A model generated the notes under the pieces. It was not told the origin of the DNA. It searched no databases and worked only from the letters and a program-made list of their open reading frames with translations. Below, piece after piece: positions 4,073-29,078 of a DNA stretch of 64,000 nucleotides. Numbering within the stretch: the first letter of the stretch is position 1; the number at the start of each line of letters is the position of its first letter. The translations under genes and the position numbers were made by a program. This DNA is from Desulfosudaceae bacterium (GTDB lineage: Bacteria; Desulfobacterota; Desulfobacteria; Desulfobacterales; Desulfosudaceae), in the NCBI GenBank assembly GCA_963674745.2, contig CAXXDV010000003.1, forward strand, positions 288,001 to 352,000, written 5' to 3'.

Positions 4073-4840
4073 ATGATGGTTTTAACCGAGTATAAATCGC
4101 CGGAAGAAATCAGGCATTCGCTTGGAAAAGCCCGGGGTGTTGTGGTGTTTTCCTGCAGCGGGTGCGCCAACATGAATGAGATCGGCGGCCGGCGCGGGTT
4201 AAAATTCATGAAAAAACGCCTTTCGGCATGGGGATATTCGGTTGTCGCCGGTGCAACCCCTCCCGGTATCTGCATGAACGCGGTTATGGAAAACGCGACT
4301 CATAAATGGATTCAGCCGAACAGATCAAAGGTGGACGCGCTTCTTGCCATCTGCTGTGCTGCGGGAATAAAAAACGCCGCTTATTTTAATCCCGATCTCA
4401 AGGTGGTTGCCGCTGCCGATCCCATGGGCGTGGAATGCCTGCTGCCCCACAATGCATATTATGAAGATGCCGGGGATTATATGGTGGCCCATGAACTGTG
4501 CCTGCCCTGCGGAAGCTGCGTTTTGTCCTTTACCACCGGGATCTGTCCGCTGGTGGCATGCCCGGCAAAATCAAAATACGGCTATTGCAAGAACCCGCCT
4601 TACCCGGGGAATGGTTGCACAGTTAAGCCTGATCAAAAATGCGTCTGGGCAATAATCGAAAAACGGGGTGGTGACCTCGAAGGCCTGGGGAAATTAAAAG
4701 AGATTCATGAAAATCCGGATTATGAAAGAATTCCTTCTATTGACACACCGCCCCGGACCGTAAAACAGCACACAATCGCAGGATACTGCGGCGGTCGGTC
4801 ACCATCATTCATATCGGATCTTTTACGCTGGGTAAGGTGA
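4073..4840 (+). CDS. MetV-like (MTHFR C-terminal zinc-finger domain) Cys-rich protein, copy 1
   Basis: SCSGCA..GG, CCAAGIK, CLPCGSCVLSFTTGICPLVACPAKSKYGYC, C.V...KCVW. Confidence 0.75.
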   Translation: MMVLTEYKSPEEIRHSLGKARGVVVFSCSGCANMNEIGGRRGLKFMKKRLSAWGYSVVAGATPPGICMNAVMENATHKWIQPNRSKVDALLAICCAAGIKNAAYFNPDLKVVAAADPMGVECLLPHNAYYEDAGDYMVAHELCLPCGSCVLSFTTGICPLVACPAKSKYGYCKNPPYPGNGCTVKPDQKCVWAIIEKRGGDLEGLGKLKEIHENPDYERIPSIDTPPRTVKQHTIAGYCGGRSPSFISDLLRWVR

Positions 4841-4882
4841 TCGTTTCTTATAAAGCCATCAGAAATTTAAGAGGGAATAAAC

Positions 4883-5656
4883 ATGTTTCAGACAAAATAT
4901 AAATCCGAGGAGGAGCTGCAATATTCGCTTCGGAATTTTCAGAAAGTGGGCATCATTTCCTGTAATGTATGCTGCAACCTGAGTGATTGCGGCGGACAAC
5001 AGGGGCTGGAATTGATGTCCGGGTTTTGCCGGAACTGGGGGAAAGCGGTCGTGGCGGACTGCCTGATTTTTGGCGGCTGTGTCGGTACGGTTCATGAGCA
5101 CGCGGTGAAAAAGCGGATATATCCTCATCAATCCGATATCGATGCGCTGGTTATGATCAGTTGCGCAGCCGGTATTAAAACGGCCAACCTCTACAGCCCG
5201 GGTCTCCCCGTGGTGGCGGCCTGCGATTCATTCGGATCTTATCCCCTGTCGCCGAGGCAGGGCCCCAATGACAGTCTTACGATACACACCTATTGCCCGA
5301 TATGCCCCGACGGTCATTGCGTCATGTCTTATACCGCCGGAATATGCCCGGTTGTGCTGTGCCCTGAAAAATGTCGCTATGGCTATTGTGAAAACCCGCC
5401 CCAATCCCCAAACAGGCAATGCACGAAAGATGAAAACATGGCATGCGTGTGGAAAACCATTGAAGAAACCATTGCGCAAAGAGGCGAAAGCCTTGATTCC
5501 CTGAAGGAATTAGAGCAGATCCACGCGGACAAAACCCTGCGGCGGATGCCGACCCCTGAAACGGAACGGGCCGCCGGCTGGCAGATCAAAATGGCGCAAT
5601 GGTTCAGCCTGAATGTATTAAATCGCGTGGCGGATTCATTGCATGCCGCCAGGTGA
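4883..5656 (+). CDS. MetV-like Cys-rich protein, copy 2
   Basis: SCNVCC..GG, SCAAGIK, CPICPDGHCVMSYTAGICPVVLCPEKCRYGYC, ACVW. Colinear with copy 1; GAGG RBS. Confidence 0.75.
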   Translation: MFQTKYKSEEELQYSLRNFQKVGIISCNVCCNLSDCGGQQGLELMSGFCRNWGKAVVADCLIFGGCVGTVHEHAVKKRIYPHQSDIDALVMISCAAGIKTANLYSPGLPVVAACDSFGSYPLSPRQGPNDSLTIHTYCPICPDGHCVMSYTAGICPVVLCPEKCRYGYCENPPQSPNRQCTKDENMACVWKTIEETIAQRGESLDSLKELEQIHADKTLRRMPTPETERAAGWQIKMAQWFSLNVLNRVADSLHAAR

Positions 5657-5695
5657 TCCCAACGCAAGCGAAAGCATTTTTTATAAGGAGAGGAC

Positions 5696-6913
5696 ATGGA
5701 AAGAAAACTGTTGAAAAAGCTGCACCGGCTTGGGGACATCATGAATAACGAGTCGGAATTTCCGATGACGGTTATCCGGTGGTATCTGGTGCCGCCGGTT
5801 TACAGATGGTATTTCAAGCCGCTTTACAAGGCCATGGCAGCCGTCCTGCCTGAAGCGGAAATCGATTTTTTACTGAAGTTGAAAAATGATCGATTGACCA
5901 AAAAACAGTTGCGGGAACGGGTGGGCGGTCCTGACGAAACCTTTGACGACCTTTTTAATTCCCTGATAACCAGAAAAGCCGTTCTCTGGTCGGAGGCCCG
6001 CCAGGACGGCGAGGAAGTTTTCAGAATAGCGCCCATGATGCTGGGATGGATGGAGTTAAGCTGCTCTGACGGAAACATTACACCGGACAAAGAAGCCTTT
6101 TCCCGTGAACTGACGAAGTTTTTTAATAGAGTAAAACTGATGAATTTTTTCGGGGTGCGTAACGTCATTAACCAGATTTTTTTCGGTCTGGGGCCGATGT
6201 CCGGGATCGCCCGGCTGCCGTTGAAAACAGAGACCGAAGAACAGATCAAGATCCAGGTCGGGCAGTCGCTCGATATCCCCGAAGCCAGGATATACAGTAC
6301 CGGCAGCGTTAATAACCTGATTGAAAAATACGGTAATGACGACCAGATCGCCGTCACCAAGTGCCTCTGCCGCCAGCACTGGGCACTGGAGGGCGAGCCC
6401 TGCCGGTTGGATCTTCCCCTGGAAACCCATTTATGGATTGGGCCGTTTGCCGACCATGTCGTCAAATATGGCTATGGCCGCCGGGTTTCAAAGGAGGAAG
6501 CCTATGAAATAACCAGGACGGTCCGGGACAAAGGGGGAGTGCATGAAATCATGCATACCAGAATGGACGTGAACCAGGAACCCGGGTTGTCTGTCTGTAA
6601 CTGCTGCTGGGACTGCTGCACGGCCCTTGGCAATTACAACCGGGGGCTGACGCCCCTGGCCCTTAAAGCCTATTACCGGGCGGTTATTGCCGATGAAACC
6701 AGATGCACCAACTGTGGTAAATGCGTGGAATTTTGCCCGGTGAGTGCCATGCAGCTCAAAAACGGTCGGCTATGGCATGATCCGGGTTTATGCATCGGTT
6801 GCGGACAGTGCGAATACCAGTGTCCTGAAGATGCGGTCAGCCTGGTGCCGGATGAACGGGTGGTAAAACTGGGTCTTTTGAAAAAATCAAAAAGAAAACC
6901 GGCCTTTCAATAA
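5696..6913 (+). CDS. 4Fe-4S dicluster domain protein
   Basis: CLCR, CNCCWDCC, and two C-terminal CxxCxxCxxxCP motifs. AAGGAGAGG RBS. Confidence 0.85.
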   Translation: MERKLLKKLHRLGDIMNNESEFPMTVIRWYLVPPVYRWYFKPLYKAMAAVLPEAEIDFLLKLKNDRLTKKQLRERVGGPDETFDDLFNSLITRKAVLWSEARQDGEEVFRIAPMMLGWMELSCSDGNITPDKEAFSRELTKFFNRVKLMNFFGVRNVINQIFFGLGPMSGIARLPLKTETEEQIKIQVGQSLDIPEARIYSTGSVNNLIEKYGNDDQIAVTKCLCRQHWALEGEPCRLDLPLETHLWIGPFADHVVKYGYGRRVSKEEAYEITRTVRDKGGVHEIMHTRMDVNQEPGLSVCNCCWDCCTALGNYNRGLTPLALKAYYRAVIADETRCTNCGKCVEFCPVSAMQLKNGRLWHDPGLCIGCGQCEYQCPEDAVSLVPDERVVKLGLLKKSKRKPAFQ

Positions 6914-9089: not shown

Positions 9090-9342
9090 ATCGTTCTTTC
9101 TCCTTGTTCCCTCTCAACCCGGAACAACAATTCCGGTTCAGAATCAGATGAATCATTTTCCCTGACAGAGATCCGCAAAACGGATTCGACCCGGTCATGC
9201 AGCCACATGTTTTTCATCATGTGCGCCATAAAAATCCGTATCGATTGTAGTTTTAATAATCGGATTTATCAATACCCTGCCGGATTCTGTTATAGCTGGT
9301 GTTTCAGGATATCCGATGACATGTATTATGGTGCCGGTATGC

Positions 9343-10395
9343 TCATGGCCGGGGCAGATCCGCAGGTTGTTTGACGGTCATGGCTGTTGTCAGAAGTTCG
9401 GTATAGGTGATATTTCCGGACAGGGTCAGGGCGGTATTGCCCTGTACCCAGCTCAGGGATGAAAAAGGGCCGAAAAAATTCAGGTAGCCGGTATACGCCC
9501 CGATTTTTACCCTGACGCCTGAAGGTTGGCTCCACTGGCCGGCCAGGGCCCGCATCTGGGTCAGGGTGATGTAACGGCCGTTTTTGTGAACCACGACCAT
9601 GGCCATGGGCAGGCAATGCCGGCCTCTGATGATTTTTTTCACTTCCAGCCCCCGGGGAAGGTCGGTCGGCATCAGAAAATCAAAGTTCATTTCTTTTGCG
9701 ATCTCAGCTTTGGGGCTGCCCGGGTCGGTAATGTCAAAATCAAAGACAACCGCGTTGGGCGGCAGGGTAATCTCAAAAAGATCGTCCTCGACGCGGATAT
9801 TGTATTTTATCCGGGTAAATGCCACTTCATACCAGGTATGGTCGGGCCGGTCGAGAATCTGAACACGCAGGGGAACGGAAAATTCTTTGTCCGTCCACGA
9901 GGTATAGGGCAGCAGCCAGGGTTTTTTCTCGGTGGGGCTGGCTTTCCACCCTGTGGCCGGCCGGGCTACCGTCATTTTATCGCCCAGGAATTGAAAATCG
10001 TAATGCCCCCAGAGCCAGGCCACGTCTTCTTCGAGTAATTTTTTATAGTCGGCTTCATCCAGTGGATCAAATCCGGTGACCCGTATGCCGAAAAGCGATT
10101 GGGGCCACCACATGGTCATGGCCCGGCCGTCAAACAAAAACAGCTGACCGGCCAGGGATTTGGGGGCTGTTGTTTCAGCCCGTACCCGCCATGGTTTTTT
10201 ATACCATATCTCGGTGACATTTCCGGGGGCGTCGTTACGCCCGAAATGTTCTTCATATGTGCCATGATAGGATGCTATGGACATGGTGTTGTCGGCAATC
10301 TGGTCGGCGATGACATCGGCCATTATGGTCGAGCAGGAATAAAACGTCATCGCCAGGGATACGGTTATTAACGCTATCTTGTTCATTGCGTTCAC
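9343..10395 (-). CDS. LolA/RseB-like periplasmic carrier-fold protein
   Basis: Signal peptide, IWYKKPWRVRAE, DGRAMTMW, FEITLPPNAVV, then an MPTDLPRG-type C-terminal domain. Starts 5 nt after the upstream gene's stop. Confidence 0.6.
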   Translation of the reverse strand: MNAMNKIALITVSLAMTFYSCSTIMADVIADQIADNTMSIASYHGTYEEHFGRNDAPGNVTEIWYKKPWRVRAETTAPKSLAGQLFLFDGRAMTMWWPQSLFGIRVTGFDPLDEADYKKLLEEDVAWLWGHYDFQFLGDKMTVARPATGWKASPTEKKPWLLPYTSWTDKEFSVPLRVQILDRPDHTWYEVAFTRIKYNIRVEDDLFEITLPPNAVVFDFDITDPGSPKAEIAKEMNFDFLMPTDLPRGLEVKKIIRGRHCLPMAMVVVHKNGRYITLTQMRALAGQWSQPSGVRVKIGAYTGYLNFFGPFSSLSWVQGNTALTLSGNITYTELLTTAMTVKQPADLPRP

Positions 10396-10400
10396 CTCTC

Positions 10401-12887
10401 TTACCAGAAGATTTTATCGGTTGTGTCAAACATCCATGGCGCGGTTAACAGAAACAGCGCCACTGTGGTTAGAAAAAAAGGATAGATCCATTTTTGCGGA
10501 ACCCCGGCAGGGAAACATAATTTTTCCGCCACCACCATCAGACCGTTGACCGGAAAAAACACAAAGACCCCCCAGGACCAACGGCCGGTGGCAACCCCGG
10601 TCATGGCCGCGGTCATTCCTCCGATCATTGCAAATATCGCCATAACGGCAATCACCGGCCGGTTTCGTCCGTCCAGCGGAATATAGACGTGACGCAACAG
10701 AAAATCACCCAGGGGGATGTCCCAGGCCCGCCATAATCCTGAGGGCGGCAGGGGACCGAAAGGCCTGTACCCAAAGGCATCCGGAAGCTTGTAGCCGGCC
10801 TGGCGCCACAAGGCGTTCGACCAGTCCAGTGCGCCTCTTAACACCAGGTACAGGCACAATAACCGCCCGAATATCAGCAAAACGTGCAAGGCCGTGGTGC
10901 CTGACGCGGTAACGATCCAGCCGGCCAGAAAAAAACCGAGCACCAGTCCGGCCAGCAGCCTGAAAAATCCGGCATAGCCTGACAGCCAATGGCGTGAAAA
11001 ATGTACTTTGGTCGTATCCGGTGAAAAACTGTTCTTGTAGTCCAGGGTGGGGAAAAACAGTATGAATGAGATCACCCGGGCGGTCATCCGGCGCTGAATT
11101 GGATCGACCAGCAGTACATCATAACTTTTGAATAGAAAGATAATCGAGAAAAGCATCAGTAGAAACGACCATTCGCTGTCGGCCGGATGCAGGATCATGG
11201 CGGTCAACACCAGGGGGATGGTGATCAAGCTCGGCAACAAAAGGAACAGGCGGGACCCGGCTGGGGACCATTTTTCGTATGCCACCCGGGCCAAGCGGCC
11301 CGTCAGCCAGGTGCCGATCCAGTAAAACAGTACGAAAACGACCAACACCGGTGCCACCGGCGGATATTTGATCGGCCAGTGGCCGGCGGCGGCATCGGAT
11401 ATCCATCTATATCCCCATATGCCCGCTATCAGCCATATGATGATCGGAATAACAGCGGAAAAAACAGACAACGGACCGGATACCTTTTGCCATAAAAGAT
11501 ACCAGTAATGGAAAAAGATCCAGAGCAGGTTGCCCGCAGGATAGATAAAAGGCATCTTTCCGCCCATCAGGGGAAAAGTCTGTTTTTCTTTGCGGGACAC
11601 CGGCCAGGGTGACCGCGTTTTACCCAGTCGCCTGACCCACATGCGGTAATATGCGCGGTAGGTCAGGTTCATGGCCCAGAAATCCGCATTCTGGGCAAAC
11701 CGGAAATTGGCCGCGTTAAACGAACGGGCCAGGATCGACCGAAAACTGTAGAACCGGTCTAAAAATCGTCGGGCGCCCTGGTAGATTAAATCCTCCGACA
11801 AACCGCCGACATCGGCCATTACGTGGGCACCGTCGTATTTGCGTATATCCCGGGTTATCAGTTTATCCTGGTCTTTTAAGGTTTCATAATCGGGCGTCCC
11901 CGGAAACCAGGTGGCGATATTGGTGGAAGCCAGGAACACACCGGCCTCTTCACAGAAACGATAGGTGTCGTCAAAGGACTGAACGCTTTGCCCGGTCAGG
12001 CCCCACATCAGGCCGGTATGGACAAAAATGCCATGGGACTGGACTTTCCTGATGATGCGGGCATATTCCTCAACCGGGTTGAATCCTTTTTGGGCCTGGG
12101 CCAGTACATTTTTTTCAACCGATTCCATTCCCACAAATACGACTTTGCATTGGCTTCGCTCCAGGTGTTTGAGAAGCTTGTCGTCATCAAGCGAGGCCAG
12201 GGTGGCTTCGCCCATCCATCCCCAGACACCCTTGTTCTCCAGGAGCCGGCAGACCTCGATGATGTAATCCCGGTCGGCCGCGAAATGCAGGTCTACCGCC
12301 TCTACCAGTCCGTGGTCCCAATGGTCAAGCTCTCGCTCGATGGATTCCAGGCTGCGGGTCCTGAAGCCGGGCAGAAAGTGACGGCCGAAACAAAAGGAGC
12401 AACGATGCGGGCATCCCCGCGAAAACTCTATGGGAAAATTCACCCAGTAATATTTACCCGCCTTTTGAAGGTCCCTGCGGGGCAGGTGCTCGCCCCAGTT
12501 TTTAGGCGGTTGCGCCAGCCGATAAACGCCTTTTAAACGACCCTGTTCGGCGTCGGCGATAATCTTTTCTCCCAGTCCTTCGACTTCGCCGACCACCACC
12601 GCGTCAAAATGTTCCAGAGCCCGATCGGTCATGACCGAAGCCGGACCGCCGAGAATAGTGGGTATGCCCAGTTCCCGGAACCGGTCCGCCAGGTAAAGGG
12701 CCCGGGGAAAATTATAGGCCTGGGCGGATATGCCGATCAGGTCGGCGGCAGAAAAATTCACCGGTTCGATATTCTCATCGTTGATTTCAACTTCGGCATA
12801 GCGACCGATTTCGGCTGCCACTGTCGGCAACCGGACCTGGCGGTAGCGGGGAATGGCCAGCGGCATATCAATGAGACGAACGATCAT
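10401..12887 (-). CDS. B12-binding radical SAM protein fused to a C-terminal MBOAT-like multi-pass membrane domain
   Basis: DLIGIS...ILGGP...VVVGEVE (B12-binding), SRGCPHRCSFC (CxxxCxxC), VGMES, FPGT. C-terminal ~380 aa is hydrophobic and contains LWRAWDIPLGDFLLRHVYIPL. Confidence 0.75.
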   Translation of the reverse strand: MIVRLIDMPLAIPRYRQVRLPTVAAEIGRYAEVEINDENIEPVNFSAADLIGISAQAYNFPRALYLADRFRELGIPTILGGPASVMTDRALEHFDAVVVGEVEGLGEKIIADAEQGRLKGVYRLAQPPKNWGEHLPRRDLQKAGKYYWVNFPIEFSRGCPHRCSFCFGRHFLPGFRTRSLESIERELDHWDHGLVEAVDLHFAADRDYIIEVCRLLENKGVWGWMGEATLASLDDDKLLKHLERSQCKVVFVGMESVEKNVLAQAQKGFNPVEEYARIIRKVQSHGIFVHTGLMWGLTGQSVQSFDDTYRFCEEAGVFLASTNIATWFPGTPDYETLKDQDKLITRDIRKYDGAHVMADVGGLSEDLIYQGARRFLDRFYSFRSILARSFNAANFRFAQNADFWAMNLTYRAYYRMWVRRLGKTRSPWPVSRKEKQTFPLMGGKMPFIYPAGNLLWIFFHYWYLLWQKVSGPLSVFSAVIPIIIWLIAGIWGYRWISDAAAGHWPIKYPPVAPVLVVFVLFYWIGTWLTGRLARVAYEKWSPAGSRLFLLLPSLITIPLVLTAMILHPADSEWSFLLMLFSIIFLFKSYDVLLVDPIQRRMTARVISFILFFPTLDYKNSFSPDTTKVHFSRHWLSGYAGFFRLLAGLVLGFFLAGWIVTASGTTALHVLLIFGRLLCLYLVLRGALDWSNALWRQAGYKLPDAFGYRPFGPLPPSGLWRAWDIPLGDFLLRHVYIPLDGRNRPVIAVMAIFAMIGGMTAAMTGVATGRWSWGVFVFFPVNGLMVVAEKLCFPAGVPQKWIYPFFLTTVALFLLTAPWMFDTTDKIFW

Positions 12888-12996
12888 CGGCCCTCCACGG
12901 GGAAAACGAAAGATTCGAAAAACCTGAATTAATATTTTTTATGACATCATTACTATCTGAAAACGATTTTTAAAAAAGACGTGAGTTGTTCCGGCA

Positions 12997-13488
12997 TCAA
13001 AGAAACTGCATGAAGTGACAGAAAAGAAGGATGATTATCGTGATCACGGCGGCAAAAATAAAGATGCCCATCCATCCATCTCTGTCGGCCTTTTTTCGAT
13101 AATCCTTCAATTTGTTTTCCAGCACAGCCAGTTTGTCTTGTGTTTTGTTATCAGCCGGATTTATTTTCAGTTTGGTGATGATTGAATCCAGCCTGGTAGC
13201 GGCCGCGTCAGACACACCAACTTCTTCCATCGATAAACTCGTATGGTTCATATAGGAGAGGCAGGCCAGTCCTTCATCAATCAGCAAACCAGGAAAATCG
13301 GGAAGCGGTCCTCCCGTCAGGATGACAGCCAGTGTTGCTTTATCCGCATGACTGAGCCTGTTGTGGAAATCTTTTAAAGCGGCATTCTGCTTATCCCATT
13401 CATCCGGGTTGACCGCAGAAGATCGGCAGTACTCGCAATAAAAACCCGTCATCGGCGCGCCACAATGAGGACAGACACTATCAGCCAA
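12997..13488 (-). CDS. Hypothetical zinc-ribbon protein with C-terminal TM helix
   Basis: CPHCGA..FYCEYC and a hydrophobic C-terminus. AGGAG precedes the TTG start. Confidence 0.65.
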   Translation of the reverse strand: MADSVCPHCGAPMTGFYCEYCRSSAVNPDEWDKQNAALKDFHNRLSHADKATLAVILTGGPLPDFPGLLIDEGLACLSYMNHTSLSMEEVGVSDAAATRLDSIITKLKINPADNKTQDKLAVLENKLKDYRKKADRDGWMGIFIFAAVITIIILLFCHFMQFL

Positions 13489-25961: not shown

Positions 25962-28900
25962 CTACCAACCGAAGGTAATACCGGCCCGTCCGGAAACTTC
26001 ACTGCTTGTGCTGGCCGAGATGCCGGCGTTGACCAGTATTCGGTTTTCTTTCACGTAGTGAAACATACCGGCGGCAATGGCCTGTCTCGATCCATACGTG
26101 CCCACACCGACCGAGACCTGCGTATCGCCGGCTGAGCGGGCATTCGGCACCAGGGCCGACAGGGCCGCTCCCATGGCGCCGACATCATCCATCCTGTCAT
26201 CAAGGTCGCTGAGCTTGTCGTGAATCGTTTTGATATTATGAAAATTGCGGTCAATATTGCCGGTGTTGGTCGCGATGCTGTCGCTGTTGGCCGCTATGTC
26301 GCCGGTGTTGTTGTCAACCCGGCTGTCGACGGTATCCAGTTGCTGTTTGTTGACGGCGTCGGTGCTGTTGACACCGGCCGCCATGTTGGTGACGCGCCGC
26401 TGGTTGTCGGTATTGCCGACAGAAACCGTGTCCGCTTCCGAGGCCACGGCATCTTTACCCAGGGCAACACTGTTGGTCGCGCCGGAGCGAACAGCCGCGT
26501 TCTGCCCGAGAGCGGTCCCGCCATCAGCATTTGCATCCACCCGGGTATCCGCACCCACGGCCACGCTGTTTTCAGAATCAATGCCAGCGTTGGTGCCCAG
26601 GGCGGTGCTGCCGTCGGCAATGACAACGGTGCCGCGCCCGATGGCGATATCGTTGGTCCTGGCAGAGGCACCCGGCCCGATGGCAATGGCACCGTCAAAT
26701 GAAGCGCTGGAAACGCCATCACTGCCGGTTGACAGCCATTCGAGATCGGCCAAGCCGTCAGCATTGGCGGCAATCGCCCGGGTGTTTCGGTCAATATTAT
26801 AGGTATTGTTAATTGAACCGGCAACCATGCCGCTCAACTGGCTGACGTTTACGGCATCGGTCGGGTCGATGCCGGCCGCAACGTTGGTGATACGACGTTC
26901 TGACCCGGCCGCGCCCACGGAAACGGTATTGTTCTGGGCGGCAACAGAACCGGCGCCCAGGGCTACCGAGTTGGTGCCTGTGACGACGGCACCCGTACCG
27001 ATACCGATATTGCCGGTGCCGGAAACCGTGGCGCCCATGGCCGCGAAGTTGCCGTCGCCGGTCACCGTGTTGCCGTTGCCGGACACAAAGTGGTTGTCGC
27101 CGGTGACACTGTTGCTGCTGCCGTACACCCCGTTGTAGCTGCTGTTGACGACATTGTCGCTGCCGATCACCCCGTTGCTGTTACTGTCATCCGCCAGGGT
27201 GTTGTTCTGGCCGCTGACCAGGTTAAAGCCGTTATCCTCTCCGAGAGAGTTGAACATGCCGCTGACGTTATTAAAGCCGCTGCCTTCGTCGAGGCGGTTG
27301 AACATCCCGCTGACATCGTTGGCGATGTTGCCGTCTTCAAGTTGATTGATAAATCCACCGACCCGGTTAAACCCATTGTTGTCTCCCAGGGAGTTGAATA
27401 CACCGCTGACCTGGTTGCCGGAGCTGGATTCTCCCAGGTTGTTATTCAGTCCGCTGACGTTGTTTTGAGAACTGCCGTCCCCCAGGGAGTTAAATCCGCC
27501 GCCAATGACATTCCGGTCATTGTCATTTCCGAGGGTATTGTTCATGCCGCCGACAAGGTTGCTGCCGTTGTCATCACCAAGGGTGTTTAATACGCCGCTG
27601 ACACTGTTCTGGTTGCTGCCGTTACCCAACCTGTTGAGTCCGCCGCCGACAACGTTTCGTTCATTCGCTTCTCCCAGGGTGTTGGAAAAACCGGTAACAC
27701 TGTTGTGCAGGTTGTCAATTGCCAGGGTATTGCTTTCGCCACTGACCAAATTGGAATCGTTGTTGTCCCCCAGGGTATTGAATTGACCACTGATGGCGTT
27801 ATGGAGGTTGTCATTGCCGAGGGTGTTGTTCTGGCCGCTGACAAGGTTCCGATCATTGTTGTTTCCCAGCGTATTATCGCCGCCGCCGACGATGTTCCGG
27901 GCACTTCCGTTACCCAGGCTGTTGTCCCTTCCACTGACGGCGTTGTTATTGTTCCTGTTGCCCAGGGTGTTGTTTCTTCCGCTGACGGCATTGTGGTCAT
28001 TATTATTGCCCAGGATATTGTTTCTTCCGCTGACGGCGTTGTTGGTGTTGTTGTTCCCCAGGGTGTTGCTCTCTCCGCTGACCGTGTTGGCAAAGGTGTC
28101 GTCTCCCAGGGTGTTGTATCCGCCGCCGACCGTGTTGGCAATATTGATTTGACCCAGTGTATGATACCCACCGCTGACATTGTTGCTGTCACTGCCTGAA
28201 TCAAGGCTGTTGAAGATGCCGCTGACATTGTTGTGATAGGTATTATCGTTCAGCCTGTTCATCATTCCGCCGACAGTGTTCCGGTCACTGTCATCTCCAA
28301 GGGAATTGAATATACCGCTGACCTGGTTGCTGCCGCTGCCGTTACCGATCCTGTTGTTGGCACCGCTGACACTGTTCTGGTTGGCACTGTCACCCAGCCT
28401 GTTGTTCCCGCCGCCGACAATATTCCGGTCGGCGTCACTCCCGAGGCTGTTTATTGTTCCGCCAACCAGGTTTGAACTGTTGTCATTAGACAGACTGTTG
28501 TTGACACCACCGACAATGTTCCGGTCACTGTTATCTCCCAGATTATTGTTCTCACCGCTGACGGCATTTGATTCATTGTCGCCGCCGAGGACGTTGTTCT
28601 CACCGCTGACCTGGTTTGAGTTGGTATTTGACGTGCCGGAGGTACCGAGGACATTGTTCACCCCGCTGACGGCATTGTAGTCGTTTCTGCCGTAGATGAA
28701 GTTGTTTTCACCATTGACGGCGTTCATGTCGCTGTTGTTGCCGATATCGTTTTGGGCACCGCTTAACAGGTTACCGACACTGTTGTTTCTTATACGGTTA
28801 TCCTCACCATGAATAATGTTGGCGCTGCTGTCGTCATTGATGATATTGTCCCGGCCGTCGATCAGGTTGGCATCACTGTTACTGCCAATCTGGTTGTTGG

Positions 28901-29078
28901 CCCCGTTTATTTCGTTTAACTGGCTGCCGGCACCGGGGCCCGTATTGCCGGGGCCGTTTATTTCATTGGCCGTGGCAGTTAAAGGCATTGCCAGGCCAAT
29001 ACAGGCCAACATGGCAATCAACATTGCCGGCCGGTATCTTTCAAATAATGTTTTTGCGCGTAGGGTTGACGGTTTCAT
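25962..29078 (-). CDS. YadA-like trimeric autotransporter adhesin with Asn-rich 14-aa repeats
   Basis: Signal peptide; long run of N.VSG.NN.LG repeats; SVALG head repeats; two necks (RRITNVAAG..TDAVN..QL); anchor GAMGAALS...VGVGTYG...AGITFGW. AAGGAGG RBS. Confidence 0.9.
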   Translation of the reverse strand: MKPSTLRAKTLFERYRPAMLIAMLACIGLAMPLTATANEINGPGNTGPGAGSQLNEINGANNQIGSNSDANLIDGRDNIINDDSSANIIHGEDNRIRNNSVGNLLSGAQNDIGNNSDMNAVNGENNFIYGRNDYNAVSGVNNVLGTSGTSNTNSNQVSGENNVLGGDNESNAVSGENNNLGDNSDRNIVGGVNNSLSNDNSSNLVGGTINSLGSDADRNIVGGGNNRLGDSANQNSVSGANNRIGNGSGSNQVSGIFNSLGDDSDRNTVGGMMNRLNDNTYHNNVSGIFNSLDSGSDSNNVSGGYHTLGQINIANTVGGGYNTLGDDTFANTVSGESNTLGNNNTNNAVSGRNNILGNNNDHNAVSGRNNTLGNRNNNNAVSGRDNSLGNGSARNIVGGGDNTLGNNNDRNLVSGQNNTLGNDNLHNAISGQFNTLGDNNDSNLVSGESNTLAIDNLHNSVTGFSNTLGEANERNVVGGGLNRLGNGSNQNSVSGVLNTLGDDNGSNLVGGMNNTLGNDNDRNVIGGGFNSLGDGSSQNNVSGLNNNLGESSSGNQVSGVFNSLGDNNGFNRVGGFINQLEDGNIANDVSGMFNRLDEGSGFNNVSGMFNSLGEDNGFNLVSGQNNTLADDSNSNGVIGSDNVVNSSYNGVYGSSNSVTGDNHFVSGNGNTVTGDGNFAAMGATVSGTGNIGIGTGAVVTGTNSVALGAGSVAAQNNTVSVGAAGSERRITNVAAGIDPTDAVNVSQLSGMVAGSINNTYNIDRNTRAIAANADGLADLEWLSTGSDGVSSASFDGAIAIGPGASARTNDIAIGRGTVVIADGSTALGTNAGIDSENSVAVGADTRVDANADGGTALGQNAAVRSGATNSVALGKDAVASEADTVSVGNTDNQRRVTNMAAGVNSTDAVNKQQLDTVDSRVDNNTGDIAANSDSIATNTGNIDRNFHNIKTIHDKLSDLDDRMDDVGAMGAALSALVPNARSAGDTQVSVGVGTYGSRQAIAAGMFHYVKENRILVNAGISASTSSEVSGRAGITFGW

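Follow-up and report, generated by a model that had tools for sequence, protein, structure and literature searches.

A radical SAM enzyme fused to an MBOAT fold without the catalytic histidine, and its RseB/LolA-like partner: a two-gene cassette that probably tailors a membrane lipid

The reverse strand of a 64,000-nucleotide stretch of the Desulfosudaceae bacterium assembly GCA_963674745.2 (contig CAXXDV010000003.1, positions 288,001 to 352,000; the whole stretch is called the window in the following, and its first letter is position 1) carries a gene for an 828-amino-acid protein, P0001, in which a radical S-adenosylmethionine (SAM) enzyme is joined to a membrane domain of the MBOAT type. 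It is directly followed by a gene for a protein, P0002, with the fold of RseB/MucB and LolA (Table 1). A preliminary description of this gene pair had read it as a cobalamin-binding radical SAM protein, which uses a dead MBOAT as a lipid-binding scaffold and passes its product to an exported periplasmic carrier, and had not recognised such a fusion as described before. Our full-text literature search, with subscription journals outside its coverage, likewise found no description of a radical SAM-MBOAT fusion, and database sources label the members of the family simply as 'radical SAM protein'. Here we describe the gene pair as a self-contained two-gene cassette, which probably tailors a membrane lipid in an undescribed way.

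Table 1. Positions of the cassette, its parts and its two adjacent genes in the window
Feature	Positions	Strand	Basis or remark
Radical SAM/pseudo-MBOAT fusion gene (P0001, 828 amino acids)	10401..12887	-	Open reading frame; 26 full-length homologues aligned; AlphaFold2 (AF2) model
Rossmann-type, B12-binding-like domain, residues 1-~125	12513..12887	-	AF2 secondary structure; VIA-align matches from residue 1
Radical SAM core barrel, residues ~145-390	11718..12455	-	PF04055 over residues 153-312; AprD4 Z 28.2 over model 1-388
CPHRCSFC, CxxxCxxC motif for the [4Fe-4S] cluster, codons 159-166	12390..12413	-	Cys invariant in 27/27
MBOAT-fold membrane domain (predicted), residues ~394-828	10404..11708	-	VIA-align; PF03062; profile against DGAT1/ACAT2
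WRAWD, corresponding to the MBOAT 'WRxWN' motif, codons 719-723	10719..10733	-	Family alignment
Thr759 codon at the MBOAT catalytic-His position	10611..10613	-	Aligned to DGAT1 H447 and to the 'HEY' His
GAGAGG, Shine-Dalgarno-like site between both genes	10395..10400	-	Read from the sequence
RseB/MucB-fold, LolA-like partner gene (P0002)	9343..10386	-	347 amino acids from ATG; AF2 predicted local distance difference test (pLDDT) 85.7; Foldseek
Signal peptide MNKIALITVSLAMTFYS, ending in Cys18, probable lipoprotein signal	10333..10386	-	N-terminus alignment
Zinc ribbon-like/transmembrane protein, 163 amino acids	12997..13488	-	109 nucleotides upstream of the fusion gene
Single-chain ADP-forming acyl-CoA synthetase, 705 amino acids	6972..9089	-	ATP-grasp_5 + CoA_binding + Succ_CoA_lig

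The single frame reported in the preliminary description, with the cluster motif CPHRCSFC in front of a domain with multiple transmembrane helices, was recovered as one gene, and the N-terminus of its product agrees with the N-termini of the aligned homologues. The AF2 model of the whole chain reached a mean pLDDT of 90.2 and a predicted template modelling score of 0.85. In this model the structural match to AprD4 covers residues 1-388 and the match to DltB starts at residue 394 (VIA-align), therefore the radical SAM barrel, which ends at about residue 388, is placed directly on the membrane domain, which begins at about residue 394, without any linker between the two halves.

The fusion is found well beyond this assembly. 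A homologue search in a collection of 5.8 billion clusters returned 240 proteins with E <= 0.001 among 8000 candidates (120 listed), including 26 full-length relatives of 813-877 amino acids, all from assemblies other than the source, which together with P0001 make up the family alignment A1 of 27 sequences; P0021 (749 amino acids, 90% cover) and P0024 (471 amino acids) were left out. Members named in the databases come from at least four phyla, i.e. Planctomycetota, Thermodesulfobacteriota, Ca. Schekmanbacteria and Elusimicrobiota. Furthermore, a relative in the genome G003 has an open fusion frame of 838 amino acids with no stops, and the whole fusion gene is present in five metagenome loci (L112-L116), which were located using five closer sequences as queries. 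An origin of the fusion from an assembly artefact or a frameshift is ruled out by the full-length homologues, the open frame in G003 and the five loci, and the concern that the architecture might be unique to one assembly and unsupported by reads was not borne out. Logan contigs of the runs X1 and X2 span positions 9300-13000 with 0 differences; both runs represent one sample, which may be the source of the assembly, hence these contigs are not independent of it. No RNA runs carrying the stretch were listed.

Within its own lineage the family has a patchy distribution. Among the 150 matches listed for 41 related genomes, only those from the source genome (G000) and G003 reach the membrane domain, which makes two out of 13 for the family, with no such match in the 28 others of the order. 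When 401 genomes sampled from the phylum were searched with the C-terminal domain alone, it was found in G000 only, while 18 other genomes gave weak matches (E >= 7.5e-7) that lie in frames of ordinary MBOAT size. Against 1.84 billion representatives, the same domain gave 86 matches with E <= 0.001, seven of them with E <= 1e-10, and no split forms were seen in that search. Its only short forms, P0127 (498 amino acids) and P0128 (454 amino acids), whose matches begin at residues 117 and 79, look like truncated fusions, the former starting with a remnant of DUF4070. The proteins P0024, P0033 and P0034, which consist of the radical SAM part only and show 42-56% identity, could be split forms or fragments. 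The matches listed from a GTDB scan with the full-length profile were exclusively radical SAM-only paralogues with at most 35% identity, and the ESM Atlas contained no large cluster of the fusion, its radical SAM-only clusters appearing at a score of 0.84. All in all, the fusion is real, ancient enough for divergence to 33% identity, patchy and rare. Apart from the cassette, the source genome encodes many radical SAM paralogues with a B12 domain: 24 matches to P0001 were scored from 53 first-look candidates, all but one of them radical SAM-only, and related genomes of the family have 10-24 matches each.

The N-terminal half belongs to the radical SAM superfamily by its cluster motif, by the Pfam profile PF04055 (E 2.3e-16, 60.9 bits compared to a cut-off of 29.5) and by a partial TIM-barrel fold shared with AprD4 and MgmA. 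The three cluster residues C159, C163 and C166 are invariant in all 27 family sequences. Structural comparison with VIA-align gave Z values of 28.2 for AprD4 (PDB 6FD2; root-mean-square deviation 2.5, 376 residues aligned, 20% identity, residues 1-388), 25.8 for MgmA, 23.9 for CysS, 23.3 for TsrM and 21.7 for OxsB, and the matches to TsrM, CysS, OxsB, MgmA and TokK begin at residue 1 of the model, i.e. they include the Rossmann-type domain. AprD4 is also the best hit of the 27-member family profile against solved structures (E 2.3e-13, matching the first half). In the alignment, this half has dozens of invariant polar residues, which include the three cluster Cys and the Rossmann loop motifs INDEN (35-39), TAQxYN (Q56/Y58/N59) and VGEVEG (99-104), and this conservation argues for a bound ligand there. 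The best match among the NCBIfam models was HpnJ (E 6.4e-21), although its 74.8 bits remained far from the cut-off of 577.6, as was the case for all other equivalogs, for example BchE (62.4 of 481 bits, E 3.6e-17), HpnR (47 of 650), PhpK (55 of 600) and TIGR04072 (27.1 of 360); the peptide/RiPP (ribosomally synthesised and post-translationally modified peptide) enzyme ApyD appeared as another relative (E 5.3e-11). The N-terminal half is a radical SAM module of the class B type, which may use cobalamin.

In the C-terminal half, PF03062 (MBOAT) scored 28.7 bits over residues 716-792, above its cut-off of 27, and the same family is precomputed for 16 of the 26 homologues. At positions 453-802, the family profile matched DGAT1 (E 4.7e-8), ACAT2 (4.7e-7) and HHAT (0.02). 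The Z values of the model were 22.4 with DGAT1 (root-mean-square deviation 3.8, 307 residues, model 510-828), 20.4 with DltB (model 394-828), 20.3 with ACAT1, 18.1 with HHAT, 17.9 with PORCN (model 396-825), 16.9 with MBOAT7 and 16.1 with LPCAT3, all well above the Z of about 13 that helical bundles may reach through their common arrangement according to the tool; Foldseek found DltB with E 9.7e-5. By these comparisons of the predicted structure, the C-terminal half has a true MBOAT fold, in agreement with the motif likeness noted in the preliminary description, for which the lack of such a fold would have been fatal.

The same domain has lost the residue on which MBOAT catalysis depends, with the sites of DGAT1 (H415/H447) and of the DltB H336 type taken as reference. 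In the HMMER alignment, the segment 'FLVSAVFHE' of plant DGAT1, which contains H447, pairs with 'FLvSGlllA' of the family and with F752...T759 of P0001, and Thr759 in the sequence IGGMTA (residues 755-760) is found opposite to H447. The observation that this place is without His can be extended to the whole family: the column shows His in 0 of 27 sequences and instead T, A, F, S, L, M or C. The closest stand-alone relatives of the domain, MBOAT/MBOAT_2 proteins of about 310 amino acids, have 'HEY' at the catalytic place in seven of seven cases, therefore the loss of His in the fusion family is derived. Other parts of the signature were retained, namely the motif 'WRxWN..(R)HVYxPLGG', in which W719 is invariant and position 723 is Asn in 21 sequences, Asp in three including P0001, Phe in two and His in one. 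Between residues 440 and 828 none of the polar residues is invariant in the 27 sequences; the best conserved ones are K587 (26/27), E788 (24/27), N723 as mentioned and R695 (21/27). His missing from the catalytic column but kept in the stand-alone MBOATs, together with C-domain invariants that are only Pro, Gly, Trp or Phe, constitutes the evidence for a 'DEAD ACYLTRANSFERASE'. As judged from the alignment, the domain is unable to use the catalytic base of the MBOAT superfamily.

For the partner gene, the preliminary description had given a gap of 5 nucleotides to the fusion gene, which corresponds to a GTG start at position 10395 and a protein of 350 amino acids. The junction reads TAA-GAGAGGTGAACGCA-ATG, and we regard the ATG at position 10386, 14 nucleotides past the fusion stop and with GAGAGG ahead of it, as the likelier start; the database record of 347 amino acids agrees with it. 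The AF2 model of the partner matched RseB (2v42) with E 2.2e-18 over 334 columns and MucB (6jau) with E 3.1e-16, and all RseB/MucB matches (2.2e-18 to 1.8e-15) cover both domains, whereas LolA, with E from 4.6e-10, matched the first domain only (Foldseek). Hence, the LolA/RseB fold noted earlier is of the RseB/MucB two-domain type (PF03888 + PF17188), in which a large LolA-like domain is followed by a small C-terminal one. PF03888 scored 19.4 bits in P0002, under the cut-off of 22.3, and exceeded it in the partners from L112 (29.6) and L116 (22.4); the NF006990 model for RseB (13.1 compared to a cut-off of 368) and the LolA equivalog TIGR00547 (12.3 bits compared to 112) were far from being matched in P0002.

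A Cys occupies the aligned column after the hydrophobic stretch in six of the seven partner sequences with an N-terminus, two of the six showing classic LAAC or ASGC lipoboxes, while the copy in G003 has a plain signal peptide. This pattern suggests that the partner is most likely a periplasmic lipoprotein, which is anchored to a membrane rather than a free shuttle. From the exported periplasmic carrier of the preliminary description, the LolA/RseB-like protein dedicated to the fusion can be kept; free shuttling is less likely than an anchored state.

Partner and fusion belong together in nearly all loci. The partner gene lies directly downstream of the fusion gene in six of seven loci, i.e. 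in the window, L111 (G003), L112, L113, where the partner is cut by the end of the contig, L114 and L116. The gap between both genes ranges from -4 to 24 nucleotides in five of these six and is 71 nucleotides in L111. P0032 and P0217, which come from the same source and from contigs that are both 4575 long, are probably an eighth fusion/partner pair. Thus, the architecture as well as the adjacency, which the preliminary description had suggested to look for, recur in other genomes. Moreover, 80 loci of the nearest radical SAM-only paralogues among the matches listed had neither a partner nor the C-terminal domain adjoining. A partner profile gave strong matches in G000 and G003 only, the same two of the 41 related genomes that have the fusion; since the partner sequences of these two are inside the query profile, the informative part is the other 39 genomes, in which no partner match below E 2.7e-7 was found. 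One partner homologue, P0126 (36% identity, PF03888), lies on a 2.3-Mb contig from which no fusion appeared among the matches listed; this partner may exist without a fusion, or the fusion gene was missed.

The strongest evidence for the link is a natural triple fusion. P0129 (1770 amino acids) and P0210 (1776 amino acids), which are 92% identical and come from different assemblies, combine the radical SAM module and the MBOAT domain with three full-length partner units in tandem (E 2e-65, 1e-64 and 8e-42; 32-38% identity to the partner). At this type of junction, the signal peptide of the partner, 'RRMVSLGMLVALLLFVGLSTGC', is found where the last MBOAT helix would be; therefore this helix runs from inside to outside, and therefore the C-terminus of the membrane domain is periplasmic and the radical SAM module cytoplasmic. 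DGAT1 has the same topology, with the N-terminus inside and the C-terminus outside. Altogether, the data support the RseB/LolA-like protein as the dedicated partner of the fusion, and it is very likely that both proteins form one functional unit, which acts on a hydrophobic molecule of the membrane.

How such a unit could work can be outlined from the folds. The radical SAM module would sit on the cytoplasmic face of the MBOAT-fold domain, and the partner would dock on, or work at, the periplasmic face. The pseudo-MBOAT would have retained the chamber and the tunnel of its fold in order to hold a membrane-embedded hydrophobic substrate, for which a lipid is the favoured type because the best profile matches are the lipid-handling proteins DGAT1 and ACAT2. 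This molecule, most likely a lipid tail, would enter the chamber laterally and thread through the cytosolic tunnel, which in DGAT1 and ACAT takes the acyl-CoA, up to the radical SAM active site, where the 5'-deoxyadenosyl radical would abstract a hydrogen from an unactivated carbon. The outcome might be a methylation if cobalamin is bound, and otherwise a cyclisation, desaturation or cross-linking. Finally, the lipoprotein would take the product, or bring the substrate, on the periplasmic side. Precedents for the chemistry exist, as a recent preprint describes B12-dependent radical SAM enzymes that cyclise, methylate and desaturate the inert tails of archaeal (tetraether) lipids (bioRxiv 10.1101/2025.10.20.683597). 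The whole picture of a cytoplasmic radical enzyme, a pseudo-MBOAT holding a hydrophobic membrane substrate and a periplasmic lipid-binding lipoprotein is, in our judgement, evenly poised between right and wrong. In comparison with the preliminary description, the dead MBOAT, the conserved fusion and the dedicated partner are now supported, while the scaffold and carrier steps and the lipid nature of the substrate are still proposals. The 10-methyl-branched fatty acids of Desulfobacter-type bacteria were considered as a product and set aside, as the cassette occurs in two of 13 genomes of the family.

Several observations weigh against this picture. It presupposes that an unbroken passage connects the MBOAT chamber with the radical SAM pocket, which we assume, and chambers of the DGAT1/ACAT type are closed on the lumenal side, which fits poorly with a periplasmic hand-over. 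Cobalamin binding, as claimed in the preliminary description, found no direct backing in P0001, for which PF02310 (B12-binding) gave no match in Pfam at E <= 1, though it is precomputed for 22 of the 26 homologues; in P0129 it scored 24.2 bits, below the cut-off of 32.1. Moreover, AprD4, the closest structure, is presumably a B12-domain radical SAM enzyme that works without cobalamin. The rarity of the family implies that no major membrane lipid of the clade is made by it, and no lipid-metabolism genes are conserved around the cassette across the loci. In L115, no partner gene was found within 1.6 kb downstream of the fusion gene; the ORF (open reading frame) in this place was considered as a divergent partner and ruled out (hhalign probability 0.09). 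Finally, the predicted complex of the C-terminal domain and the mature partner scored 0.36 (runs 0.36, 0.39 and 0.31) compared to 0.00 for the best of three controls, in a range, up to 0.60, in which only 18 of 157 solved complexes passed and in which both passing mismatches are found as well, the pass mark being reached by 116 of the 157 solved complexes and by two of 215 mismatched pairs. The runs agreed in at least 88% of the contacts with a partner pLDDT of at least 79, and the prediction gives weak support for binding of the partner to the membrane domain.

Compared to known systems, the cassette can be regarded as radical SAM lipid tailoring with a LolA-like partner, to which the pseudo-enzyme MBOAT is added as a new membrane module. 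The lipid-tailoring class B enzymes, i.e. HpnJ, HpnR, HpnP, the archaeal GDGT (glycerol dialkyl glycerol tetraether) ring synthase, the GMGT (glycerol monoalkyl glycerol tetraether)/GDGT methylases and the tetraether desaturase Ted, have the same architecture as the N-terminal half, with a Rossmann B12-like domain and a CxxxCxxC barrel, and act on the inert hydrocarbon tails of membrane lipids (bioRxiv 10.1101/2025.10.20.683597). HpnJ is the nearest of them in NCBIfam, yet its score, given above, stays far below family level. AprD4, the best match to residues 1-388 by structure and sequence, is unlike the fusion a soluble enzyme, which acts on an aminoglycoside as 1,2-diol dehydratase and has no membrane domain. 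To our knowledge, none of the lipid-tailoring class B enzymes is fused to a membrane domain. With the MBOATs DGAT1, ACAT1/2 (SOAT), DltB, HHAT and PORCN, the fusion family shares the fold over about 300 residues (Z 17.9-22.4) and the WRxWN motif; unlike them, it is without the catalytic His in all 27 members and has a radical SAM module in the position from which an acyl-CoA or carrier-protein donor would come in. Vertebrate HHATL is a comparable pseudo-MBOAT, in which the catalytic His is likewise lost and the role is presumably non-catalytic, though it is eukaryotic and unfused. The partner shares its fold with the beta-half-barrels of RseB/MucB and of LolA, LolB and LppX type; it differs from RseB/MucB and LolA by its lipoprotein signal and by being paired with an enzyme instead of an anti-sigma factor or LolCDE.

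Alternatively, the radical chemistry might be directed across the membrane. The lipoprotein would then capture a molecule from the periplasm or the outer leaflet, for example a lipid, the acyl chain of a lipopolysaccharide (LPS) or lipoprotein, or a lipid-linked glycan, and feed it into the MBOAT tunnel to be modified by the cytoplasmic radical SAM module. This would be the reverse of DltB, HHAT and PORCN, in which acyl donors from the cytoplasm meet acceptors on the outside. These tunnel-forming MBOATs match nearly as well as DGAT1 (20.4, 18.1 and 17.9, respectively), the partner has an anchor and is exposed to the periplasm, and the three tandem partner modules of P0129 resemble a device for capture or bridging more than a single acceptor. 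However, none of the observations speaks to the direction of transfer, the nearest profile matches are DGAT1 and ACAT2, whose substrates are lipids inside the membrane, and we are not aware of any radical SAM enzyme that works across a membrane. We consider this scheme unlikely. The same applies to its most explicit version, in our view improbable, in which the pseudo-MBOAT is a trans-membrane conduit that would allow a cytoplasmic radical SAM enzyme, dependent on SAM and a low-potential reductant, to perform C-H chemistry on a molecule located within the outer leaflet of the inner membrane or farther out, with the tethered lipoprotein delivering and removing the molecule. If this were true, a radical enzyme that works across a membrane would be seen for the first time, and likewise an MBOAT fold serving as a substrate channel instead of a catalyst.

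The partner could also regulate instead of carry. As RseB does in the sigma-E pathway, it would bind to the periplasmic face of a membrane protein and let go of it on binding stray lipid or LPS, thereby toggling the radical SAM enzyme as an envelope-sensing switch. This idea, which we regard as doubtful at best, is in line with RseB and MucB as the best matches of the partner over both domains, when LolA matches the first domain only, and with the weak predicted binding to the membrane domain. However, three covalently fused tandem copies fit poorly with a releasable regulator, and an anti-sigma/sigma-E gene was absent among the 18 ORFs of the window (68-29078) scanned against Pfam. Furthermore, the partner has a lipoprotein signal, whereas RseB is not known to have one.

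Still less probable is a hydrophobic substrate other than a lipid, for example a quinone, a pigment of the tetrapyrrole or carotenoid type or a membrane-associated peptide, with the pseudo-MBOAT acting mainly as an anchor. The NCBIfam relatives include BchE, which works on tetrapyrroles, and ApyD, and upstream of the fusion in L116 are genes for a UbiE-like methyltransferase, an MFS transporter and a chorismate-binding enzyme. But, every NCBIfam match is far under its cut-off, the L116 neighbours are not kept in other loci, an anchor would not need a complete MBOAT fold of about 435 residues that retains conserved motifs, and the fold of the partner is known for binding acyl chains. Finally, the MBOAT domain might remain an acyltransferase by means of other residues. 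It would then take an acyl group from a donor in the cytoplasm, perhaps after the radical SAM module has modified this group, and transfer it to an acceptor bound to the partner. This is very unlikely, since in spite of the retained 'WRxWN...VYxPLGG' signature with Asn723 in 21 of 27 members, the conserved K587 and E788 and a Pfam MBOAT score above the cut-off, the catalytic His is replaced in 27 of 27 (by Phe, Leu, Ala, Thr, Ser, Cys or Met), no polar residue of the domain is invariant and P0001 itself has Asp for Asn.

If the pseudo-MBOAT indeed presents a lipid to the radical SAM module, the cassette will be of interest beyond this family. It is poorly understood how radical SAM enzymes such as the tetraether synthase, ring synthases and hopanoid methylases reach substrates that are buried in the bilayer. 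Here, the fold joined to the radical SAM module is one that normally brings together, in one chamber, a donor from the cytoplasm and an acceptor that lies in the membrane or outside the cytoplasm, and its own catalytic residue has been removed. With an 828-amino-acid chain and one partner, the pair would provide a compact and structurally tractable model for the presentation of lipids to a radical enzyme, and at the same time a natural example of a pseudo-enzyme MBOAT. The triplicate covalent partner in one lineage points to a coupling of the modification with handling in the periplasm. The pair may make a lipid of anaerobic sediment bacteria that has so far gone unrecognised, which would be relevant for biomarker work; given the rarity of the family, its ecological weight is probably small.

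Beyond the gene pair, no conserved neighbourhood exists, and the adjoining genes vary in every locus (L111-L116), where they encode among others release factor 2, a fatty-acid hydroxylase, a methyltransferase, an MFS transporter, a chorismate-binding enzyme, a GDSL lipase and a DUF169 protein. Neither an MMPL exporter nor fatty-acid-synthase-like genes were found at the cassette. The hydroxylase (L114:5462-6607, + strand; PF04116, E 3.4e-26), which follows directly after the partner gene, is the sole lipid enzyme neighbouring the pair in any locus. The group in L116 (713-3899, + strand), which comprises the UbiE/COQ5-like methyltransferase, the MFS transporter and the chorismate-binding enzyme of the TrpE/PabB/MenF type, lies upstream on the same strand in this locus only. 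In the window, the zinc ribbon-like protein has an N-terminal CxxC...CxxC motif and a C-terminal transmembrane helix and belongs to no Pfam family, whereas the acyl-CoA synthetase has its best NCBIfam match in an archaeal-type acetate--CoA ligase (397 bits compared to a cut-off of 1200). Both genes have no counterparts in L111-L116 and are treated as neighbours, not as parts of the cassette. A promoter-like site was seen at 9272-9244 in front of the synthetase gene; in the promoter and terminator scan, such sites were not more frequent than in shuffled sequences and were not used.

The joining of radical SAM enzymes to membrane modules is not limited to the MBOAT fold. P0119, a metagenomic protein of 1210 amino acids, combines an MMPL/RND transporter domain (PF03176, ACR_tran and a weak sterol-sensing match) with a B12-binding radical SAM module, which is 30% identical to that of the fusion. 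From its domain composition, P0119 is a second such case and shows that this clade of radical SAM enzymes was joined to lipid-handling membrane modules more than once.

Elsewhere in the window, two paralogues with the C-terminal domain of methylene-tetrahydrofolate reductase (MetV-like), followed by a protein with a ferredoxin domain, are encoded at 4073-6913 (+ strand), and the frame at 25962-29078 (- strand) encodes a trimeric autotransporter adhesin of the YadA type with 1038 amino acids and head, stalk and anchor domains.

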